Virus record (IMG/VR): IMGVR_UViG_2713896791_000015
Origin: a virus
Taxonomy: Duplodnaviria; Heunggongvirae; Uroviricota; Caudoviricetes
Reading direction: 5' to 3' (one strand)
Length of the DNA: 22,098 bases
The notes below the pieces were generated by a model that saw only the letters and a list, made by a program, of their open reading frames with translations, was not told where the DNA came from and ran no database searches. The position numbers and the translations under genes were made by a program. Positions 3,436-14,692 of the stretch are shown in pieces (position 1 is the stretch's first letter; each line of letters opens with the position of its first letter).

Positions 3436-3519
3436 CAAAAATATTCCGAAATTTAACTCTCCGTTTGAATGACGAAATAACAAAGTGATGACAATAGGAG
3501 GATAACCAGGAGGTGAAGA

Positions 3520-3804
3520 ATGAGCGCAATAGCCACCAGCGACACCCTTTGTTCTGGTCACGGAGGATTTCCGCCGCGACTGGTAGCTGAAACCGTTCCC
3601 TGGTTCACCGTTAACGGTAAGCCAGTTGTTGTAGATGGTGCCATGTTTCCCAGTCACACTGACGGTAACAGTGCACATCCAGGGGCAGCTGTATCGACGC
3701 GAGTATGGTTTTCGATAGGTGGAAAGGGAGTTGTCTGTGTAGGCGATCCGCTTTCTTGTGGTTCTGTTATCGCCAACGGCGAGGATATTTTTCAGGTTGC
3801 ATAA
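3520..3804 (+). CDS. PAAR-domain protein (spike-tip sharpening protein of contractile injection machines)
   Basis: 94 aa; GGAGG SD 6 nt upstream of ATG; Gly/Cys/His-rich with PAAR-like segments (SGHGGFPP, PSHTDGNSAHPGAAVS, GDPLSCGSVIANG); size matches single-domain PAAR proteins such as T4 gp5.4. Confidence 0.65.
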   Translation: MSAIATSDTLCSGHGGFPPRLVAETVPWFTVNGKPVVVDGAMFPSHTDGNSAHPGAAVSTRVWFSIGGKGVVCVGDPLSCGSVIANGEDIFQVA

Positions 3805-4610
3805 TGCTTGATTCAATAGGTGAAGTTAAAGCCTTCAAAATTCTGTCAGATGCCGGTATCTCTACACCAGAATCTATAACCATAAGCCGGGCAGCTTCTG
3901 TAAAAGCCTCATCGCTCGCCAGCGCCATACAGGGAATAGTTCACGCCGATAAAACCTATCCTGATTCTGTTTCGGCCTGGACTACTCAATTGCTTGGCTT
4001 TTCTGAACAGCTCAATGAGGCCAGCAAAGCGTCTTCATTACTGGCTGATTCTCTTTCCCCATACACCAAGCCATCAGAGCTGTTACAGATGAAGATTGGC
4101 TGGGAATGCTACGCAAAAGGTAACGAGCTGACCCCCATACCTGCTTTCGCCCTTGTTGAGGGAATGGGGAATGTTTCCATTCCGCAATCTCTAACGGACG
4201 CATTGACGGCGCTAAAACTTGATGCTCTGAAAACCGCCATGAACGCCATTAACGCAAAAATTGAAGCTGCCGGAAGTGCTGGTGGTGGTGAAAGCGATGG
4301 TGGACAGGGTGGTGCTGGGGGCGCTCAGGCTCCAGTCATTACTCAGGATGAAATTGATGCTTTACGGGAAGCAGTGACAGCCGCCGAAGTTTTACTCTCC
4401 GAAATTAACTCAGCAAGTGAGGGTGTCGTAGCCCTTACAGGTCGCATTAAAACGTCAACCACTCAGGCAACCAAAGGTTTAGAGAACGCTGTCGCCATCA
4501 CGTTAACTGGTTCTCTACTGGATAATGCAGTAATGAGTCCGGCAATCAGTTTAATCATGCCACAAGGCGTTATCGATGCGCTCCAAAAGAACACCAAAAA
4601 GGAACCATAG
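3804..4610 (+). CDS. Hypothetical protein, translationally coupled to the PAAR gene (TAATG overlap); helical with internal Gly-rich linker
   Basis: In-frame ATG at 3804 overlapping the PAAR stop codon; 268 aa; linker AAGSAGGGESDGGQGGAGGAQAP separates two alanine-rich helical halves; no recognisable catalytic motif. The ORF-track start at 3705 lies inside the PAAR gene and is rejected. Confidence 0.55.
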   Translation: MLDSIGEVKAFKILSDAGISTPESITISRAASVKASSLASAIQGIVHADKTYPDSVSAWTTQLLGFSEQLNEASKASSLLADSLSPYTKPSELLQMKIGWECYAKGNELTPIPAFALVEGMGNVSIPQSLTDALTALKLDALKTAMNAINAKIEAAGSAGGGESDGGQGGAGGAQAPVITQDEIDALREAVTAAEVLLSEINSASEGVVALTGRIKTSTTQATKGLENAVAITLTGSLLDNAVMSPAISLIMPQGVIDALQKNTKKEP

Positions 4611-4665
4611 AAACACCACTTAGGCACACAATAGGATGTAAATTGGTACATGTTTAACACCAAAA

Positions 4666-5139
4666 ATGAACCTGAAGAGGATGGTTTTGAAAAAGATAAT
4701 TTTGATTGTAATTGCGCTTTTAGCCATTTCTGGAATTTACCGAACAACGACGGCAGTTATCGAACACATCAGGTATGTCCGATCGCTTGAAGACTCAAAA
4801 TCACAACTGGAAAGCACGAACAACACGCTTTCTACCGCATTACAGTTAAGTGAGAACGCTCGCTCAGCCATGCTGACCGAAAACGAAAGAATTAAAGCAC
4901 TGGAAAAGGAGTACCAGCGCAAAACAGCAGAACTGAATGCCAACCTAATCAAACAACGAGAGGAAAGCCAGAATGAAATCACTCGCCTTGAAAATGCGTT
5001 ACGCCGTGCTGGGATTAACGATGTGCGTGTGCCTGATGACGTTATCAGGATGCAGCGGGAACGGGCAAAAGCCATCAACCAGCGTGCCAGTGAAAATTAC
5101 CGTAGAAGCCACCAGCAAGCCGCAGGCAAATCTGATTGA
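4666..5139 (+). CDS. Rz-like i-spanin (inner-membrane spanin subunit)
   Basis: N-terminal transmembrane segment ILIVIALLAISGIY followed by a long charged coiled-coil periplasmic domain, about 150 aa; contains an overlapping lipoprotein gene in the +1 frame. The in-frame ATG at 4681 is an alternative start. Confidence 0.6.
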   Translation: MNLKRMVLKKIILIVIALLAISGIYRTTTAVIEHIRYVRSLEDSKSQLESTNNTLSTALQLSENARSAMLTENERIKALEKEYQRKTAELNANLIKQREESQNEITRLENALRRAGINDVRVPDDVIRMQRERAKAINQRASENYRRSHQQAAGKSD

Positions 5140-5305
5140 TTACTCCCCTTGTTTAGTGCCAGAGGACACGCCAGTGCTGTTAAACAAGTATCCGACATAC
5201 GCTGAACAGTTATTCAGCACGATCGACGAATGCAACCAACGAAACGCACTGAATAACCAAAGAAACAGGGAGATTTGGGAAGGGAAGGGGGATCAAGGCT
5301 CCTGA
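4973..5305 (+). CDS. Rz1-like o-spanin (outer-membrane lipoprotein), overlapped architecture
   Basis: Signal peptide MKSLALKMRYAVLGLTMCVCLMTLSGC with lipobox LSGC; begins inside the Rz-like gene in another frame and extends 166 nt past its stop. Longer and less proline-rich than classical Rz1, so the call is tentative. Confidence 0.5.
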   Translation: MKSLALKMRYAVLGLTMCVCLMTLSGCSGNGQKPSTSVPVKITVEATSKPQANLIDYSPCLVPEDTPVLLNKYPTYAEQLFSTIDECNQRNALNNQRNREIWEGKGDQGS

Positions 5306-5751
5306 AGCCAGATGTCCTGGCTGTCAGCTTCTTCGAAACCGTGACAGACGTTAAAGTCACTCAAGCGATACTGACGCTGACGGCCTCTATTTCGCTCATG
5401 CCAATGCATATATCCACCAGCAAATGCCAGCGGACAATCACTATAGTCTATGTAACCAATACCATTCCCCAAACGTGCTTCGCGCGCACCGGCTTTCCAG
5501 GACAGTAGAAAAGAGTCACGATCCGCCAGCATAACAACAAAATCGTCCGGATCTCCGATACAGTGAAGAATACCTGCCTTACATAACTGCTTGAGCGCTT
5601 TGGACTGGCTCAGGATGTCTTCTCCGTAATACTGAAAACAATCATCAACAACAGCGGGATAGCCTGCCGGGGGATTCAGGCTGGTTGGTATAGCTGACGC
5701 GATCGACAGCATTAAGCGATATTGTGTTTTTGATGGGTTAACGTGGCTCAT
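5293..5751 (-). CDS. Hypothetical protein (Cys/His-containing), second gene of a divergent accessory operon
   Basis: 152-aa ORF with AAGGGA SD 5 nt upstream of ATG at 5751; 16 nt downstream of the preceding minus-strand gene; opposite in orientation to the surrounding phage genes; contains HCIGDPDDF and GGYMHWHERNRG segments; no family recognised. Confidence 0.5.
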   Translation of the reverse strand: MSHVNPSKTQYRLMLSIASAIPTSLNPPAGYPAVVDDCFQYYGEDILSQSKALKQLCKAGILHCIGDPDDFVVMLADRDSFLLSWKAGAREARLGNGIGYIDYSDCPLAFAGGYMHWHERNRGRQRQYRLSDFNVCHGFEEADSQDIWLQEP

Positions 5752-5767
5752 TTTGTCCCTTGTTTAC

Positions 5768-6160
5768 TCATTGTCGCCATGCGTTTTTTAACTCAGGAAT
5801 ATCTGCCATTTCAATTAACTTGCGAAGTCCAGCACTGACTTTCCCATTACCAACCATAGCAAGCCAATCTCTTACTGCTTTCGGCATGTAGAGCGTTGCT
5901 GTTACCGGCTCTTCAACCCTGGCAGGACATCCGCATACAGGCCATTTAATTGATTCCATAACTTCGGAGGCTGGGGTGAGGGCGGGGACATTGAGTATAT
6001 CTCTACCAGAAAACTGGATAACGATCCGTTCAGCTAGCGAGAGTATCTCACTTTCGGCAAGAATTGATGCCAACTGCGCCTCAACAAGAAAGCGACTTGT
6101 TGTGTTCAGAGAGTGGCTCTTAGCGCCATTTTTATACGAAACAAAGATTCGATACGCCAT
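5768..6160 (-). CDS. Hypothetical protein with C-terminal RHH-like segment, first gene of the divergent accessory operon
   Basis: 130-aa ORF; C-terminal TATLYMPKAVRDWLAMVGNGKVSAGLRKLIEMADI has a beta-strand/helix/G-x-S turn/helix pattern typical of ribbon-helix-helix DNA binders; N-terminal 90 aa unassigned. Confidence 0.5.
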   Translation of the reverse strand: MAYRIFVSYKNGAKSHSLNTTSRFLVEAQLASILAESEILSLAERIVIQFSGRDILNVPALTPASEVMESIKWPVCGCPARVEEPVTATLYMPKAVRDWLAMVGNGKVSAGLRKLIEMADIPELKNAWRQ

Positions 6161-6318
6161 AACTCTAATGATTTGTGTTAGAAAACTAAAATTAAATCAC
6201 ATAACAACATGCGTGTTAATATATTTTATTTTACTAAGCCTATTGACTAAATCACAAAGTATGTATTGTTAGCACGTCAAAAGAACCTTCACGCCGCGCC
6301 CGAATTTAGGGCTTAACC

Positions 6319-8016
6319 GTGAATAAAAACATTCAGCCAGCTCGTGATCGCGAGCGCGAGATTATGAATCGGGCGGCAAGCGTCATGGCTATGACCGTCG
6401 ATCCGACCACCGATGCAGCAGGCAACATGATTGCTGACCAGGCAGTAATGATGGAAAACCTGGATAAAGCAATCCAGAAAGTGCCTATGTTTGAAGGCGT
6501 AAATCCAGAGGTCGCTCGTCAGATCACTGGTGGGTGGGCTATGTCTCTGCATGAGTATAAACGTCAACATGGTCATTACCCGGCAAGTGACATCCTGGCG
6601 AACGCACACATGGCTCTTGAACGCCTGATGACTGAATGTGCCAGTGATACCCATGAAGGCACGGGTAAGGCAATGTTTGAGTCTGTCGCGCAATCAATGC
6701 GTAGCTCTGACGGCGTAATGAAAGTTGCTCAATATGCTGCTCTAATTCTGCCTGCCTCTCTGGGCGCTGCTACCAGTGATGCCTGTACTTTTGTTCCTTG
6801 TGATCGTGACGAGTCAAATATTTATGAACTGGTCAACGTAGCAGGCACAAAATTCGGCACCTTCAAACAAGGTGACGAACTGAATATGCAGTCAGCTGGT
6901 GTTTATTCTCAAATGAAGCGCCTGTATACCCTTTCCACTAAAGGGGATGGCAGCACCAAAACCTTCCAGTTCGACATCCAAAATTTTGAGGGACAATCCT
7001 GCCCGCTTCGCGCTGGTTATAACAAACTGCTGATCAACCGCAAACCGTCCAAAGTTGACGACGGCGATGGCAACCTTTATTTCAATGCTAAAGACAGCAA
7101 AGGTAATGCTTTCTCAGCGACTGCCAAAGTTGCCTATGACACTGGTGTCATTGACATTACATTTACCCAGGCTCCGCCAGAAGGTACTGAAATTGCTGTT
7201 CAGGTCGAAATTAACATCGAGCGCAATCCAAGCCTGATTCCTGTGATCAACCAGGCTATGCGTAAGTACGAAGTTCGTCCGTCCCAGTACGTAATTGCTT
7301 CCGAACACACGGTAATGTCCGCATCCGATTTAAGCCGTGAGCACGGCCTTGAATTAGCGGCACTTCAGTTCTCCGCGATGCGTAACTGGATCTCCCATGA
7401 AACCGACATCATGCGTCTGCGCACCCTGGTATTCCATACCGTTTATGGTCGTGAATTTGATGTGGCTCTGCCGGAAGCTCAAAACTATGAGTCCTGGGTC
7501 GGCCTCCTGCGTCACGTAGTAAACGCTCTGTCTCAAGAAATGGCAAATCGTACCCTGACAACGGGTATTCGTGGCGGCTTTGCTGGTGGTGACGCCGCGA
7601 ACTTCCTGCGCTCTCTGCCTCCACAGCACTTCCAGATCGCACCAGGTTACGTTCAGTCGCCGTATGTACAGTACATCGGCACCCTGTTTGGCACGATTCG
7701 TATTTACGAAGTGCCGCAACCTGTCTGTGAGCAATTCCAGGCACAGGGATATGACTTCGGGCTGGATGACATCTTCTTCTATGGGCGTGGCGAAGGCATC
7801 GGTAAAGCCGGTCTGATTGCTGGTGATGCAGTCCCAGCAATCCCTTACGTGCACGAAACCAATCCGTCTCTCGTTAACCGTACCACTCTCTGGGGCAGTG
7901 CCATCAACGAAGTACATCCTCGCAACGGTGAAAACTACTTCACCCGCCTGCGTCTGACTCGTGCCAAAGAAGGTGCTATCGACATGCTGACAGGCAAGGT
8001 TAACGAAAAAAAGTGA
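6319..8016 (+). CDS. Large virion structural protein, candidate major capsid protein (first gene of the rightward structural operon)
   Basis: 565-aa ORF (GTG start) at the head of a long co-directional structural gene block, directly upstream of an Ig-like protein and the tail sheath; ends in the slippery heptamer A_AAA_AAG before its stop. Assignment is by position and size only. Confidence 0.4.
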   Translation: MNKNIQPARDREREIMNRAASVMAMTVDPTTDAAGNMIADQAVMMENLDKAIQKVPMFEGVNPEVARQITGGWAMSLHEYKRQHGHYPASDILANAHMALERLMTECASDTHEGTGKAMFESVAQSMRSSDGVMKVAQYAALILPASLGAATSDACTFVPCDRDESNIYELVNVAGTKFGTFKQGDELNMQSAGVYSQMKRLYTLSTKGDGSTKTFQFDIQNFEGQSCPLRAGYNKLLINRKPSKVDDGDGNLYFNAKDSKGNAFSATAKVAYDTGVIDITFTQAPPEGTEIAVQVEINIERNPSLIPVINQAMRKYEVRPSQYVIASEHTVMSASDLSREHGLELAALQFSAMRNWISHETDIMRLRTLVFHTVYGREFDVALPEAQNYESWVGLLRHVVNALSQEMANRTLTTGIRGGFAGGDAANFLRSLPPQHFQIAPGYVQSPYVQYIGTLFGTIRIYEVPQPVCEQFQAQGYDFGLDDIFFYGRGEGIGKAGLIAGDAVPAIPYVHETNPSLVNRTTLWGSAINEVHPRNGENYFTRLRLTRAKEGAIDMLTGKVNEKK

Positions 8017-13464: not shown

Positions 13465-13800
13465 CGCCCTCAACGATAGCGGGTAGGGAAGGTAGCGCAA
13501 TTTTGAGGGCATTTTTTACATCATCAATTCATCTGTAATGAAGGCATTCTTTACACATTTCAATAATATCAATCAGTTAACACAGTGAATGATAATAAAA
13601 AAGCGCAATAAGAATGCACGATACGCACGATATTGGTTGAGGGCGATTTTTACATAGTCCTTACATATCAATACGTTATATAAAAACACAACTTGCTAAT
13701 AACAATATACATGCAATTAAGATGTAAAAATTGCCCTCAATTGCCGATCGTTAAGGGCAAATTCTACACCTTGAGAGGGGTGTAAAAATTGCCCTTAAGA
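13465..13800. repeat. incC-like iteron cluster downstream of repE (mixed orientations)
   Basis: Iteron-like copies TGAGGGCATTTTTTACATCA (13504), TGAGGGCGATTTTTACATAG (13638), inverted GATGTAAAAATTGCCCTCAA (13721), TTAAGGGCAAATTCTACACC (13750), inverted GGTGTAAAAATTGCCCTTAA (13781, overlapping the repE stop), partial inverted GCCCTCAA (13466). Confidence 0.75.
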
Positions 13801-14550
13801 CTGCTGATAGGTAAATTTTATCCTGGTAACTTTGCCGCCTTCCGTCACCTCTGAGAAGACTATTTTCATTTTTGTATTTTTTTCAATCTCTGCTACAGCC
13901 TTCGTTAAAAAACTTCTCTTAAATTCGGCATACCGCTGATAGCTTTTTGGTAACCCATAACGCTCCCGCATCCATTCGACGCCAAGTATGGCAAAGCCGC
14001 TTCCATCATCCTTCCTGTACTGGCATAAGGACTCATAAAGCCGCATAGAATAAGGATTTGTAAGGCGAGATACTTCGGTAAAATTCAGCCTTGTGAATCT
14101 CTTATCAAGCAGAGTAAAAAACGGCATGAGATATGGATTAAGATGAATAATGTAAGTCCCGCGCCGTGGTGAATAGGCATCCTTAATCATCCAAGGATAA
14201 GACTCATAACTGTCTTCTGATTCGGTCGATTCATCAGGGTTATATATCGTAACTTTCTTCTCGCTAAGCCCTGAAATGGCCTTACGAATATCCTTGCTGG
14301 CTTCAGCAGAGGGCAAATTATACATCTCTGCATATTCGTTGACCGTCAACTCACAGGCACCTGAACCAAGAACGCCATCCTTAGAAGCATAGCGAAGTCT
14401 TCCCACCACAATAAACAACAGTCGCTTTTGGTCGCGAGTCAGGTGATAAGCAGCCTCCGTGATCTCATTGGCTTGTGCCAAACTACGACTAATAGGTGTC
14501 GCTGACTCAATCAGGCTGACGGCTTTTGCTGTTAATTCCGCTCTGTTCAT
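13795..14550 (-). CDS. repE: Iteron-binding replication initiator, RepE (F plasmid RepFIA)-like
   Basis: 251 aa from ATG at 14550 (ORF-track TTG at 14583 lies inside an iteron). Segments LTEAAYHLTRDQKRLLF, SAEASKDIRKA, NPYSMRLYESLCQYRKDDGSG and SYQRYAEFKRSFL closely match my recollection of F RepE; flanked on both sides by iterons resembling the F ori2 repeat. Confidence 0.8.
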   Translation of the reverse strand: MNRAELTAKAVSLIESATPISRSLAQANEITEAAYHLTRDQKRLLFIVVGRLRYASKDGVLGSGACELTVNEYAEMYNLPSAEASKDIRKAISGLSEKKVTIYNPDESTESEDSYESYPWMIKDAYSPRRGTYIIHLNPYLMPFFTLLDKRFTRLNFTEVSRLTNPYSMRLYESLCQYRKDDGSGFAILGVEWMRERYGLPKSYQRYAEFKRSFLTKAVAEIEKNTKMKIVFSEVTEGGKVTRIKFTYQQS

Positions 14551-14574
14551 AACCCTGTGTGATCCTTCAAATGG

Positions 14575-14692
14575 TGAGGGCAATTTTTACATCACTTTGA
14601 GGGCAATTACTACACCTTTTGAGGGCAAATCTTACACCTTTTGAGGGCAAATCTTACACCGATCGTATTTAATTGAGGGCAAATCTTACACC
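14575..14692. repeat. Origin iterons: five direct repeats of about 19 bp (TGAGGGCAAATCTTACACC family) at 22-23 bp spacing
   Basis: TGAGGGCAATTTTTACATCA (14575), TGAGGGCAATTACTACACC (14598), TGAGGGCAAATCTTACACC (14620 and 14642, identical), TGAGGGCAAATCTTACACC (14674); spacing of about two helical turns. Confidence 0.85.

Follow-up and report, generated by a model that had tools for sequence, protein, structure and literature searches.

What do two small genes do when they run against the flow of a phage genome, lodged between its spanin genes and its structural operon? The question is raised by positions 5293..6318 of a 22,098-nucleotide (nt) stretch of viral DNA (IMG/VR record IMGVR_UViG_2713896791_000015; hereafter the window), where an earlier note had proposed a moron-type cargo locus encoding a defence, anti-defence, toxin-antitoxin-like or lysogeny-regulation pair. 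The window is a D6-like (P1-family) plasmid prophage, the region being 98.8% identical to Escherichia phage D6, and the two genes correspond to D6 orf52 and orf53. Our preferred reading, to which we give an even chance of being correct, is that the locus is a repressor-controlled early operon pairing two independent genes, a probable regulator (orf52) and a mobile accessory gene (orf53), rather than a toxin-antitoxin (TA) or defence pair. The two genes would form an early transcription unit of the phage-plasmid, probably kept off by the prophage repressor C1, and their products would act independently of each other.

The layout of the locus is as follows.

5768..6160, minus strand: orf52 (D6 orf52, phrog_7830), 130 amino acids (aa), from the open reading frame (ORF) list, PHROG match and D6 annotation
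5293..5751, minus strand: orf53 (D6 orf53, phrog_8101), 152 aa, from the ORF list, PHROG match and D6 annotation
5752..5767, minus strand: spacer of 16 nt from the orf52 stop to the orf53 start, from the sequence
5756..5761, minus strand: Shine-Dalgarno sequence of orf53, AAGGGA, within the 16-nt spacer
6319..8016, plus strand: major capsid gene (P1 gp23-like, gene 23), from PHROG match and D6 annotation
4973..5305, plus strand: Rz1-like spanin ORF flanking orf53, the spanins being identified by Rz-like PHROG matches
5293..5305, no strand assigned: convergent 3' overlap of 13 nt between orf53 and the Rz1-like ORF, from ORF coordinates

ORF list and sequence thus agree on the anatomy first described, with two minus-strand ORFs, a 16-nt gap carrying a Shine-Dalgarno sequence and a 13-nt overlap with the Rz1-like ORF. 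In the diverged relative L014, a 4-nt overlap of orf52 and orf53 replaces the spacer. A terminator was looked for between the 3' ends of orf53 and the Rz1-like ORF, and none was found. The distance from orf52 to the divergent capsid gene is 158 nt. This interval had been described as AT-rich (6161..6318), which holds for 6161..6270 (23.6% GC, against 45.8% for the window) but not for 6271..6318, which is 54% GC and part of the capsid-gene leader. A scan of 4500..6800 against Rfam returned no RNA family. The idea of a compact unit with its own control region, containing a non-structural and probably co-transcribed pair, is supported.

The evidence for repressor control comes from the spacer between orf52 and gene 23, which contains the following elements.

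6173..6189, plus strand: candidate C1 operator TTGTGTTAGAAAACTAA, 13 nt upstream of the orf52 ATG, a perfect copy of the motif defined below
6191..6219, minus strand: candidate sigma-70 promoter of orf52-orf53, read from the sequence
6249..6269, plus strand: late promoter of the capsid operon (box AAATCACA, 7 nt, -10 TATTGT), directed toward gene 23 and away from orf52
6194..6201, plus strand: second late box AAATCACA, lacking a usable -10 and overlapping the candidate orf52 -10 on the opposite strand

The operator motif, TTGTGTTAGAAAAyTAA, was defined from the resemblance of the sequence upstream of orf52 to that upstream of lpa. Allowing up to two mismatches, it occurs at 13 sites in D6, where 0.15 are expected; these lie upstream of c1, lpa, icd/ant, hrdC (as an inverted pair), ref/orf88, pdcB and orf52, and also between cre and orf117. 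The window holds one perfect copy, with 0.01 expected by chance. The motif is therefore found where a C1-repressed operon should carry it, with a 17-bp copy at the promoter (6173..6189) and further copies at c1 and at orthologues of P1 C1-regulon genes (lpa, ant, hrdC and ref). Its core is retained in the diverged loci L004 (a Salmonella D6-like locus) and L014, and in L014 it forms an island of conservation within a diverged spacer. The arrangement resembles that of the C1-controlled early operons of P1 (ref/Oref, mat/Omat and lpa/gene 10), in which non-structural genes are preceded by a sigma-70 promoter with an asymmetric 17-bp operator over it. In the P1 record, C1 operators are annotated at ref (Oref) and mat (Omat), and lpa (gene 10) was reportedly placed under C1 control in P1 by Lehnherr et al. 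in 1992. Unlike the P1 operons, the D6 operator has diverged in sequence, sharing about 10/16 positions with the P1 consensus ATTGCTCTAATAAATTT, which itself has no site in D6 at up to three mismatches; in D6, C1 is a candidate ligand. An operator definition was also tried for the Citrobacter and Pantoea elements described below, and none was definable.

The candidate orf52 promoter consists of a -35 element TTAACA (6214..6219), a 17-nt spacer and an extended -10 element TGaTTTAAT (6191..6199), and is conserved in D6, L004 and L035 (an E. coli D6-like contig). Its predicted start, near 6184, falls inside the operator. From an operator that overlaps the promoter, we infer that the unit would be silent in the lysogen and would become active upon induction or infection, ahead of the late genes that depend on Lpa. 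The earlier picture of a moron expressed from the prophage fares poorly here, as a candidate C1 operator over the likely promoter predicts silence in the lysogen.

A late-promoter model, AAATCACA-N7-TAnnnT, was derived from the upstream regions of D6 late operons. It has 12 sites in D6, all directed toward late operons and none in the orf52 sense; those in the window are at 3475, 6249 and 14880 and precede upfC, gene 23 and pmgB, respectively. P1 has 11 late promoters (PMC10695390). The second box at 6194..6201 is conserved in part among relatives. Because both boxes in the spacer between orf52 and gene 23 point to gene 23, orf52-orf53 is not a late unit.

Two further elements occupy the gene 23 side of the spacer. 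A 15-nt sequence, GAAGGTTCTTTTGAC, has exactly two copies in D6 (window 6276-6290, minus strand, and 72062-72076 of the D6 record MF356679), one directly 3' of the gene 23 late promoter and one directly 3' of the mat late promoter. Because the copies are oppositely oriented relative to the gene, they suggest a protein-binding site over an RNA element. The adjoining capsid-gene leader (6291-6318) is strongly conserved, including in the Citrobacter and Pantoea relatives, and can form a hairpin, GCCC-GAATTTA-GGGC, whose 3' arm holds the sole Shine-Dalgarno-like sequence (AGGG) ahead of the GTG start; this hairpin may be a translational control element.

The independence of the two genes is indicated by their distribution. 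D6-like elements of Escherichia, Salmonella, Shigella and Enterobacter, including L004 and L014, have them side by side. Both families also occur on one replicon in Citrobacter portucalensis NZ_CP099368 and Pantoea eucalypti NZ_CP045723, but 30 and 58 kb apart, with the orf52-like gene divergent from the capsid gene and the orf53-like gene two genes after cre. L035 has a full-length orf52 (90% identity) and no orf53; downstream of orf52 lie a hairpin and a convergent Rha-family gene. What stands behind orf52 also differs in other lineages: a NinX-family gene in Xenorhabdus, a run of small genes in Citrobacter, and nothing in Pantoea. Throughout the lineages examined (D6-like, Citrobacter, Pantoea and Xenorhabdus), the orf52-family gene itself is divergent from the capsid gene.

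Conversely, orf53 lacks an orf52 neighbour in 19 loci, among them L008, L010 and the Rosenbergiella locus L036, where the gene order is ref-x-C46-orf53, as well as Vibrio-type 90-kb elements, where it is orf53, a PadR-type regulator gene and ref, and Vibrio phage douglas 12A4. In 17 of these 19, a gene for a Ref-type RecA-dependent nuclease is found on the same strand, no more than about 3.5 kb away. Outside the D6 lineage, orf53 homologues occur among early lytic genes, near ref, dut, rdgC and an oligoribonuclease gene. This setting is that of the cre-ref accessory early region of P1 (cra, c8, ref and mat), with the homologues on the same strand as cre and ref and often coupled directly to a small regulator-like gene, which is PadR-type in the Vibrio elements and, in Pantoea and Citrobacter, a double winged-helix gene resembling orf116. 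Unlike the genes of that region, however, orf53 does not encode a homologue of Cra, C8 or the products of D6 orf114, orf116 and orf117, and in D6 it lies outside the region, behind orf52 and about 22 kb from ref. As candidate relatives of either orf52 or orf53, P1 C8 and Cra and D6 orf114, orf116 and orf117 were all rejected, with hhalign probabilities below 3%.

Two of these arrangements are of interest in their own right. In the Vibrio-type 90-kb elements (L018-L024, at about 6460-7000 in each), the orf53 homologue is coupled to a PadR-family gene (PF03551, phrog_13512), with the order inverted and a 4-nt overlap in L022; this is a second instance of orf53 next to a gene for a small DNA-binding protein. 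In Rosenbergiella-type P1-like elements (L008, 5436-5516), the C46-orf53-like pair lies downstream of a strong intrinsic terminator. It is served by a separate promoter region that includes a long palindrome, TGCTAATAGGC...GCTCATTAGCA, which suggests a different dedicated regulator for that pair.

The two genes also diverge at different rates, with identities to the window of 65% for orf52 and 95% for orf53 in L004, and of 44% and 82% in L014. The obligate linkage expected of a type II TA module is absent, as adjacency is confined to D6-like elements and each gene also occurs solo. Variable presence among syntenic relatives, one mark of a moron, is seen for orf53 only, orf52 being positionally conserved. 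From these patterns of adjacency and solo occurrence, together with the differing rates, we conclude that orf52 is the positionally conserved head of a variable slot and orf53 a portable early-gene cassette; orf53 would then be the D6-lineage cargo of a slot whose contents differ by lineage. The claim of a two-component system gives way accordingly, since the genes are adjacent only in the D6 lineage and elsewhere are unlinked in one replicon or single, while the claim of cargo character stands for orf53. The earlier note had named lack of co-conservation outside this genome as evidence against a system; co-conservation does reach beyond it and ends at the boundary of the D6 lineage, so the observation bears on that point only weakly.

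Orf52 is a 15-kDa protein with an isoelectric point (pI) of 8.6, and its family is mostly basic (pI 8-9.7). The AlphaFold2 (AF2) model, with a predicted local distance difference test (pLDDT) score of 80, folds residues 1-70 into a beta-beta-alpha-alpha-beta-beta-alpha domain, followed by a linker and then by helices at 94-103, 108-119 and 122-128. In the family alignment, the N-terminal domain has invariant residues Y3, Y9, G12, S15-H16 and T20, and the C-terminal part conserves the pattern P..(L/I)Y(M/L)P...D(W/F)L...G.G..S. Model and alignment together place helices 94-103 and 108-119 after a conserved extended segment that ends in proline. With hhalign, the C-terminal segment (~85-120) aligns to nine classical ribbon-helix-helix (RHH) domains with P=7.5e-4 and a probability of 25%, in register with Arc, Mnt and CopG, and the N-terminal domain, used as a control, gives P=0.25. 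This home-made profile comparison is a rough test.

On sequence grounds, the C-terminus of Orf52 therefore weakly fits an RHH domain. Like RHH regulators such as P22 Arc, Mnt, CopG, ParG/omega and HicB-type antitoxins, Orf52 would have a strand-helix-Gly loop-helix pattern in its C-terminal ~40 residues, which align in register with Arc; it is basic, and its gene adjoins a dense control region. Unlike them, it has no Pfam or PDB sequence match, and its RHH-like segment comes after a folded alpha/beta domain of 70 residues that has a set of invariant positions of its own. The RHH-like C-terminus noted earlier is thus plausible from the in-register alignment but unconfirmed by the Pfam and PDB sequence searches. 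Structure comparison of the N-terminal domain found no significant neighbour; T4 Dmd and VapW, both antitoxins, are among its best-scoring but non-significant fold matches. Dmd, the phage antitoxin against RnlA/LsoA, has no sequence similarity to Orf52 and no DNA-binding tail, and is a lead only. In the closed plasmid assembly pKOr024_2 (L034, NZ_CP147095.1, 1100-1490), an 8-bp frameshifting deletion in orf52 after ...KWPVCGCP splits the N-terminal domain from the RHH-like tail, and the downstream orf53 is intact. A role as a ParG-like partition protein was considered and rejected: D6 has StbA/StbB and a ParA-like pair, and the position of the operator disfavours expression in the plasmid state. 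Orf52 would most likely be a dimeric transcription regulator that acts at the shared control region, on its own promoter, the capsid late promoter or both.

A different reading of Orf52 follows from its location. It may be tied to expression of the capsid operon or to head assembly, by modulating the late promoter of gene 23 or by serving in morphogenesis, with orf53 an unrelated passenger. Divergent orientation of orf52 and the capsid gene is shared by D6-like, Citrobacter, Pantoea and Xenorhabdus elements, the second late box overlaps the candidate orf52 -10, and the 15-nt element of the gene 23 leader has its only other copy in the mat leader. We nonetheless consider this reading unlikely, as no late-promoter box is found in the orf52 sense and P1 itself lacks an orf52 homologue. 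P1 has no homologue of orf53 either, and its genes at the corresponding place, between gene 23 and mlp-ppfA-upfB-upfC, are parB-parA-repA-upfA (PMC10695390). Orf52 is, moreover, small, basic and DNA-binding-like rather than structural, and has diverged far faster than the capsid protein. Between the window and L004, the ratio of nonsynonymous to synonymous divergence (dN/dS) is 0.17 for orf52 (dS about 2), 0.049 for the capsid gene and 0.026 for orf53. Both orf52 and orf53 are real genes, each under purifying selection.

Orf53 has a pI of 5.4 and belongs to a uniformly acidic family (pI 4.8-6.2). The N-terminal half is variable in the family alignment, and the invariant residues are Y41, F81, G88, G95, Y100, F110, G113, H116 and C136-H137-G138. 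The earlier description of a Cys/His-containing protein of 152 aa is accurate, although of its Cys and His residues H116, C136 and H137 alone are invariant and the rest are unconserved. A four-ligand zinc finger was rejected, as these three are the only conserved residues of the kind. The protein would be an acidic, tightly conserved cytoplasmic protein, most likely acting alone on a host or phage factor, and the early-phase roles that we propose for it are counter-defence, host takeover or DNA transactions. We hold this stand-alone role with low confidence; it is suggested by the charge of the protein, its strong constraint, its portability and the company that its gene keeps (ref, dut, rdgC and an oligoribonuclease gene).

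A bolder version of this proposal, which we regard as rather unlikely, is that Orf53 founds an undescribed family of early effectors, shuttled among P1-like early operons and neutralising a host factor in defence or DNA repair, and that Orf52 is a new kind of two-domain regulator (a novel alpha/beta domain plus RHH) marking a conserved cargo slot opposite the capsid promoter. The features of Orf53 on which it draws are the acidic character, the length of about 150 aa, the invariant H...CHG signature and the dN/dS of 0.03.

The earlier note could not assign either protein to a family, and database searches bear this out. Searches of Pfam, NCBIfam, PADLOC and PDB sequences with Orf52 and Orf53, as single sequences and as family profiles, gave no match; for PADLOC-DB 2.0 (5027 models, E up to 1), the yield was zero families for either protein. 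Matches in PHROGs are just the two unknown-function families, phrog_7830 and phrog_8101. An exhaustive profile hidden Markov model search with orf53 across 1.84 billion representatives returned 24 clusters, two of them repeat artefacts: P0040 (1256 aa) and P0046 (243 aa) were rejected as homologues. The corresponding orf52 search returned 42 clusters, all unnamed, from Enterobacterales and Acinetobacter and typically on 80-96 kb contigs. Identity among homologues falls to 26-35% at the lowest. In PLSDB, the two families occur on 141 and 140 plasmids, almost all of them non-mobilizable and P1-sized, and a scan of genome contigs added one locus only. A literature search by accession or PHROG identifier found nothing; D6, PHROGs and RefSeq already list the products of both genes as hypothetical proteins.

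Both families are found in P1-like phage-plasmids and one Vibrio phage only, and none was seen in chromosomal islands. The sequence of 5293..6318 is 100% identical in a plasmid of E. coli O45:H2 FWSEC0003, and the locus is carried by 101 of 5,426 complete E. coli genomes, plasmid-borne every time. Separately, the Salmonella orf52 allele P0019 is recorded on two contigs of more than 1 Mb (the longest 5.07 Mb), which hints at chromosomal integration or mis-assembly of D6-like elements.

These limits bear on the possibility that the locus is a prophage-expressed defence or superinfection-exclusion moron that shields the lysogen from other phages. Its orientation against the flanking operons, its own AT-rich control region, the variable presence of orf53 and the lack of an assigned function would all fit such a moron. 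We find it very unlikely, given the blank among the 5027 PADLOC models, the confinement of the families to P1-like phage-plasmids and one Vibrio phage rather than chromosomal islands, the candidate repressor operator over the promoter, and the placement of orf53 homologues elsewhere within early lytic gene runs beside ref, dut and rdgC.

Least likely of all is a type II TA or addiction module that stabilises the plasmid prophage, with Orf52 as the antitoxin (RHH tail and neutralising N-terminal domain) and Orf53 as the toxin: the gene order is canonical (a small DNA-binding-like gene leads, and its partner follows after 16 nt or overlaps it), the leading gene is the faster-evolving of the two, the antitoxins Dmd and VapW are among the non-significant fold neighbours of the Orf52 N-terminal domain, and D6 carries further addiction modules (phd/doc and relE/higA), but orf53 stands without orf52 in 19 loci with no single conserved substitute partner, orf52 also occurs without orf53, both can be unlinked within one replicon, no toxin or antitoxin family is matched in Pfam, NCBIfam, PADLOC or PDB sequences, the orf52 of pKOr024_2 loses its RHH-like tail while orf53 remains intact, repression by C1 would shut the unit down in the lysogen, the state in which an addiction module has to work, and Orf53 is acidic.

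Several observations weigh against the early operon of regulator and accessory gene that we prefer. C1 binding and the early timing of orf52-orf53 are read from the position of the motif. The promoter was read by eye, and a scan prefers TTGTGA-18-TAAAAT, further upstream (6257..6228); the operator sits between promoter and start codon under either choice. For the RHH assignment of Orf52, the profile comparison gives a probability of 25%, a Pfam search for RHH with four C-terminal segments (E up to 10) and a PDB sequence search with the C-terminus found no match, and the AF2 monomer has no strand in the RHH-like segment. The strict synteny of orf52 with the capsid gene could instead mean that Orf52 acts late or in morphogenesis. 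For Orf53, the AF2 model (pLDDT 47, from an 11-sequence alignment) is unusable, so the role proposed for this protein comes from context and charge.

Some features of the surrounding sequence deserve mention. The upfC homologue (window 3520-3804 and 3705-4610) encodes a PAAR-domain protein (Pfam 27.2 bits, PHROG 281) and shares a late operon with upfB and the spanins, downstream of the late box at 3475; a role at the tail-spike tip fits this protein better than the current label of unknown function. Between a RepA-like gene (13795..14583, minus strand) and the pmgB late promoter (14880), at 14621-14692, at least three direct repeats of GAGGGCAAATCTTACACC look like replication-origin iterons. 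In the RefSeq record with a 100% match to the locus (L002, NZ_CP031917.1), many genes are flagged as frameshifted, including glnS, a ParA-like ATPase gene, upfB and a baseplate gene, and the tail-sheath region is fragmented, which suggests a decaying prophage or indel-rich sequencing.

The locus is of an ordinary phage kind, an early accessory operon with two uncharacterised families, and does not overturn current understanding. What is new is the evidence against a system, the candidate D6 operator and late-promoter sets, and the cargo slot behind orf52. The tempting lead of a new two-gene defence or TA system is removed, and the candidate C1 operator set and late-promoter model cover the whole D6 genome. 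In place of a system stands a conserved regulator-like gene that keeps its place at the capsid control region and is followed by a slot for variable cargo. P1-like phage-plasmids occur widely among Enterobacterales and move resistance genes, and their early genes are largely uncharacterised; as a small, strongly constrained and portable early family, Orf53 is a reasonable candidate for host-takeover and counter-defence screens.

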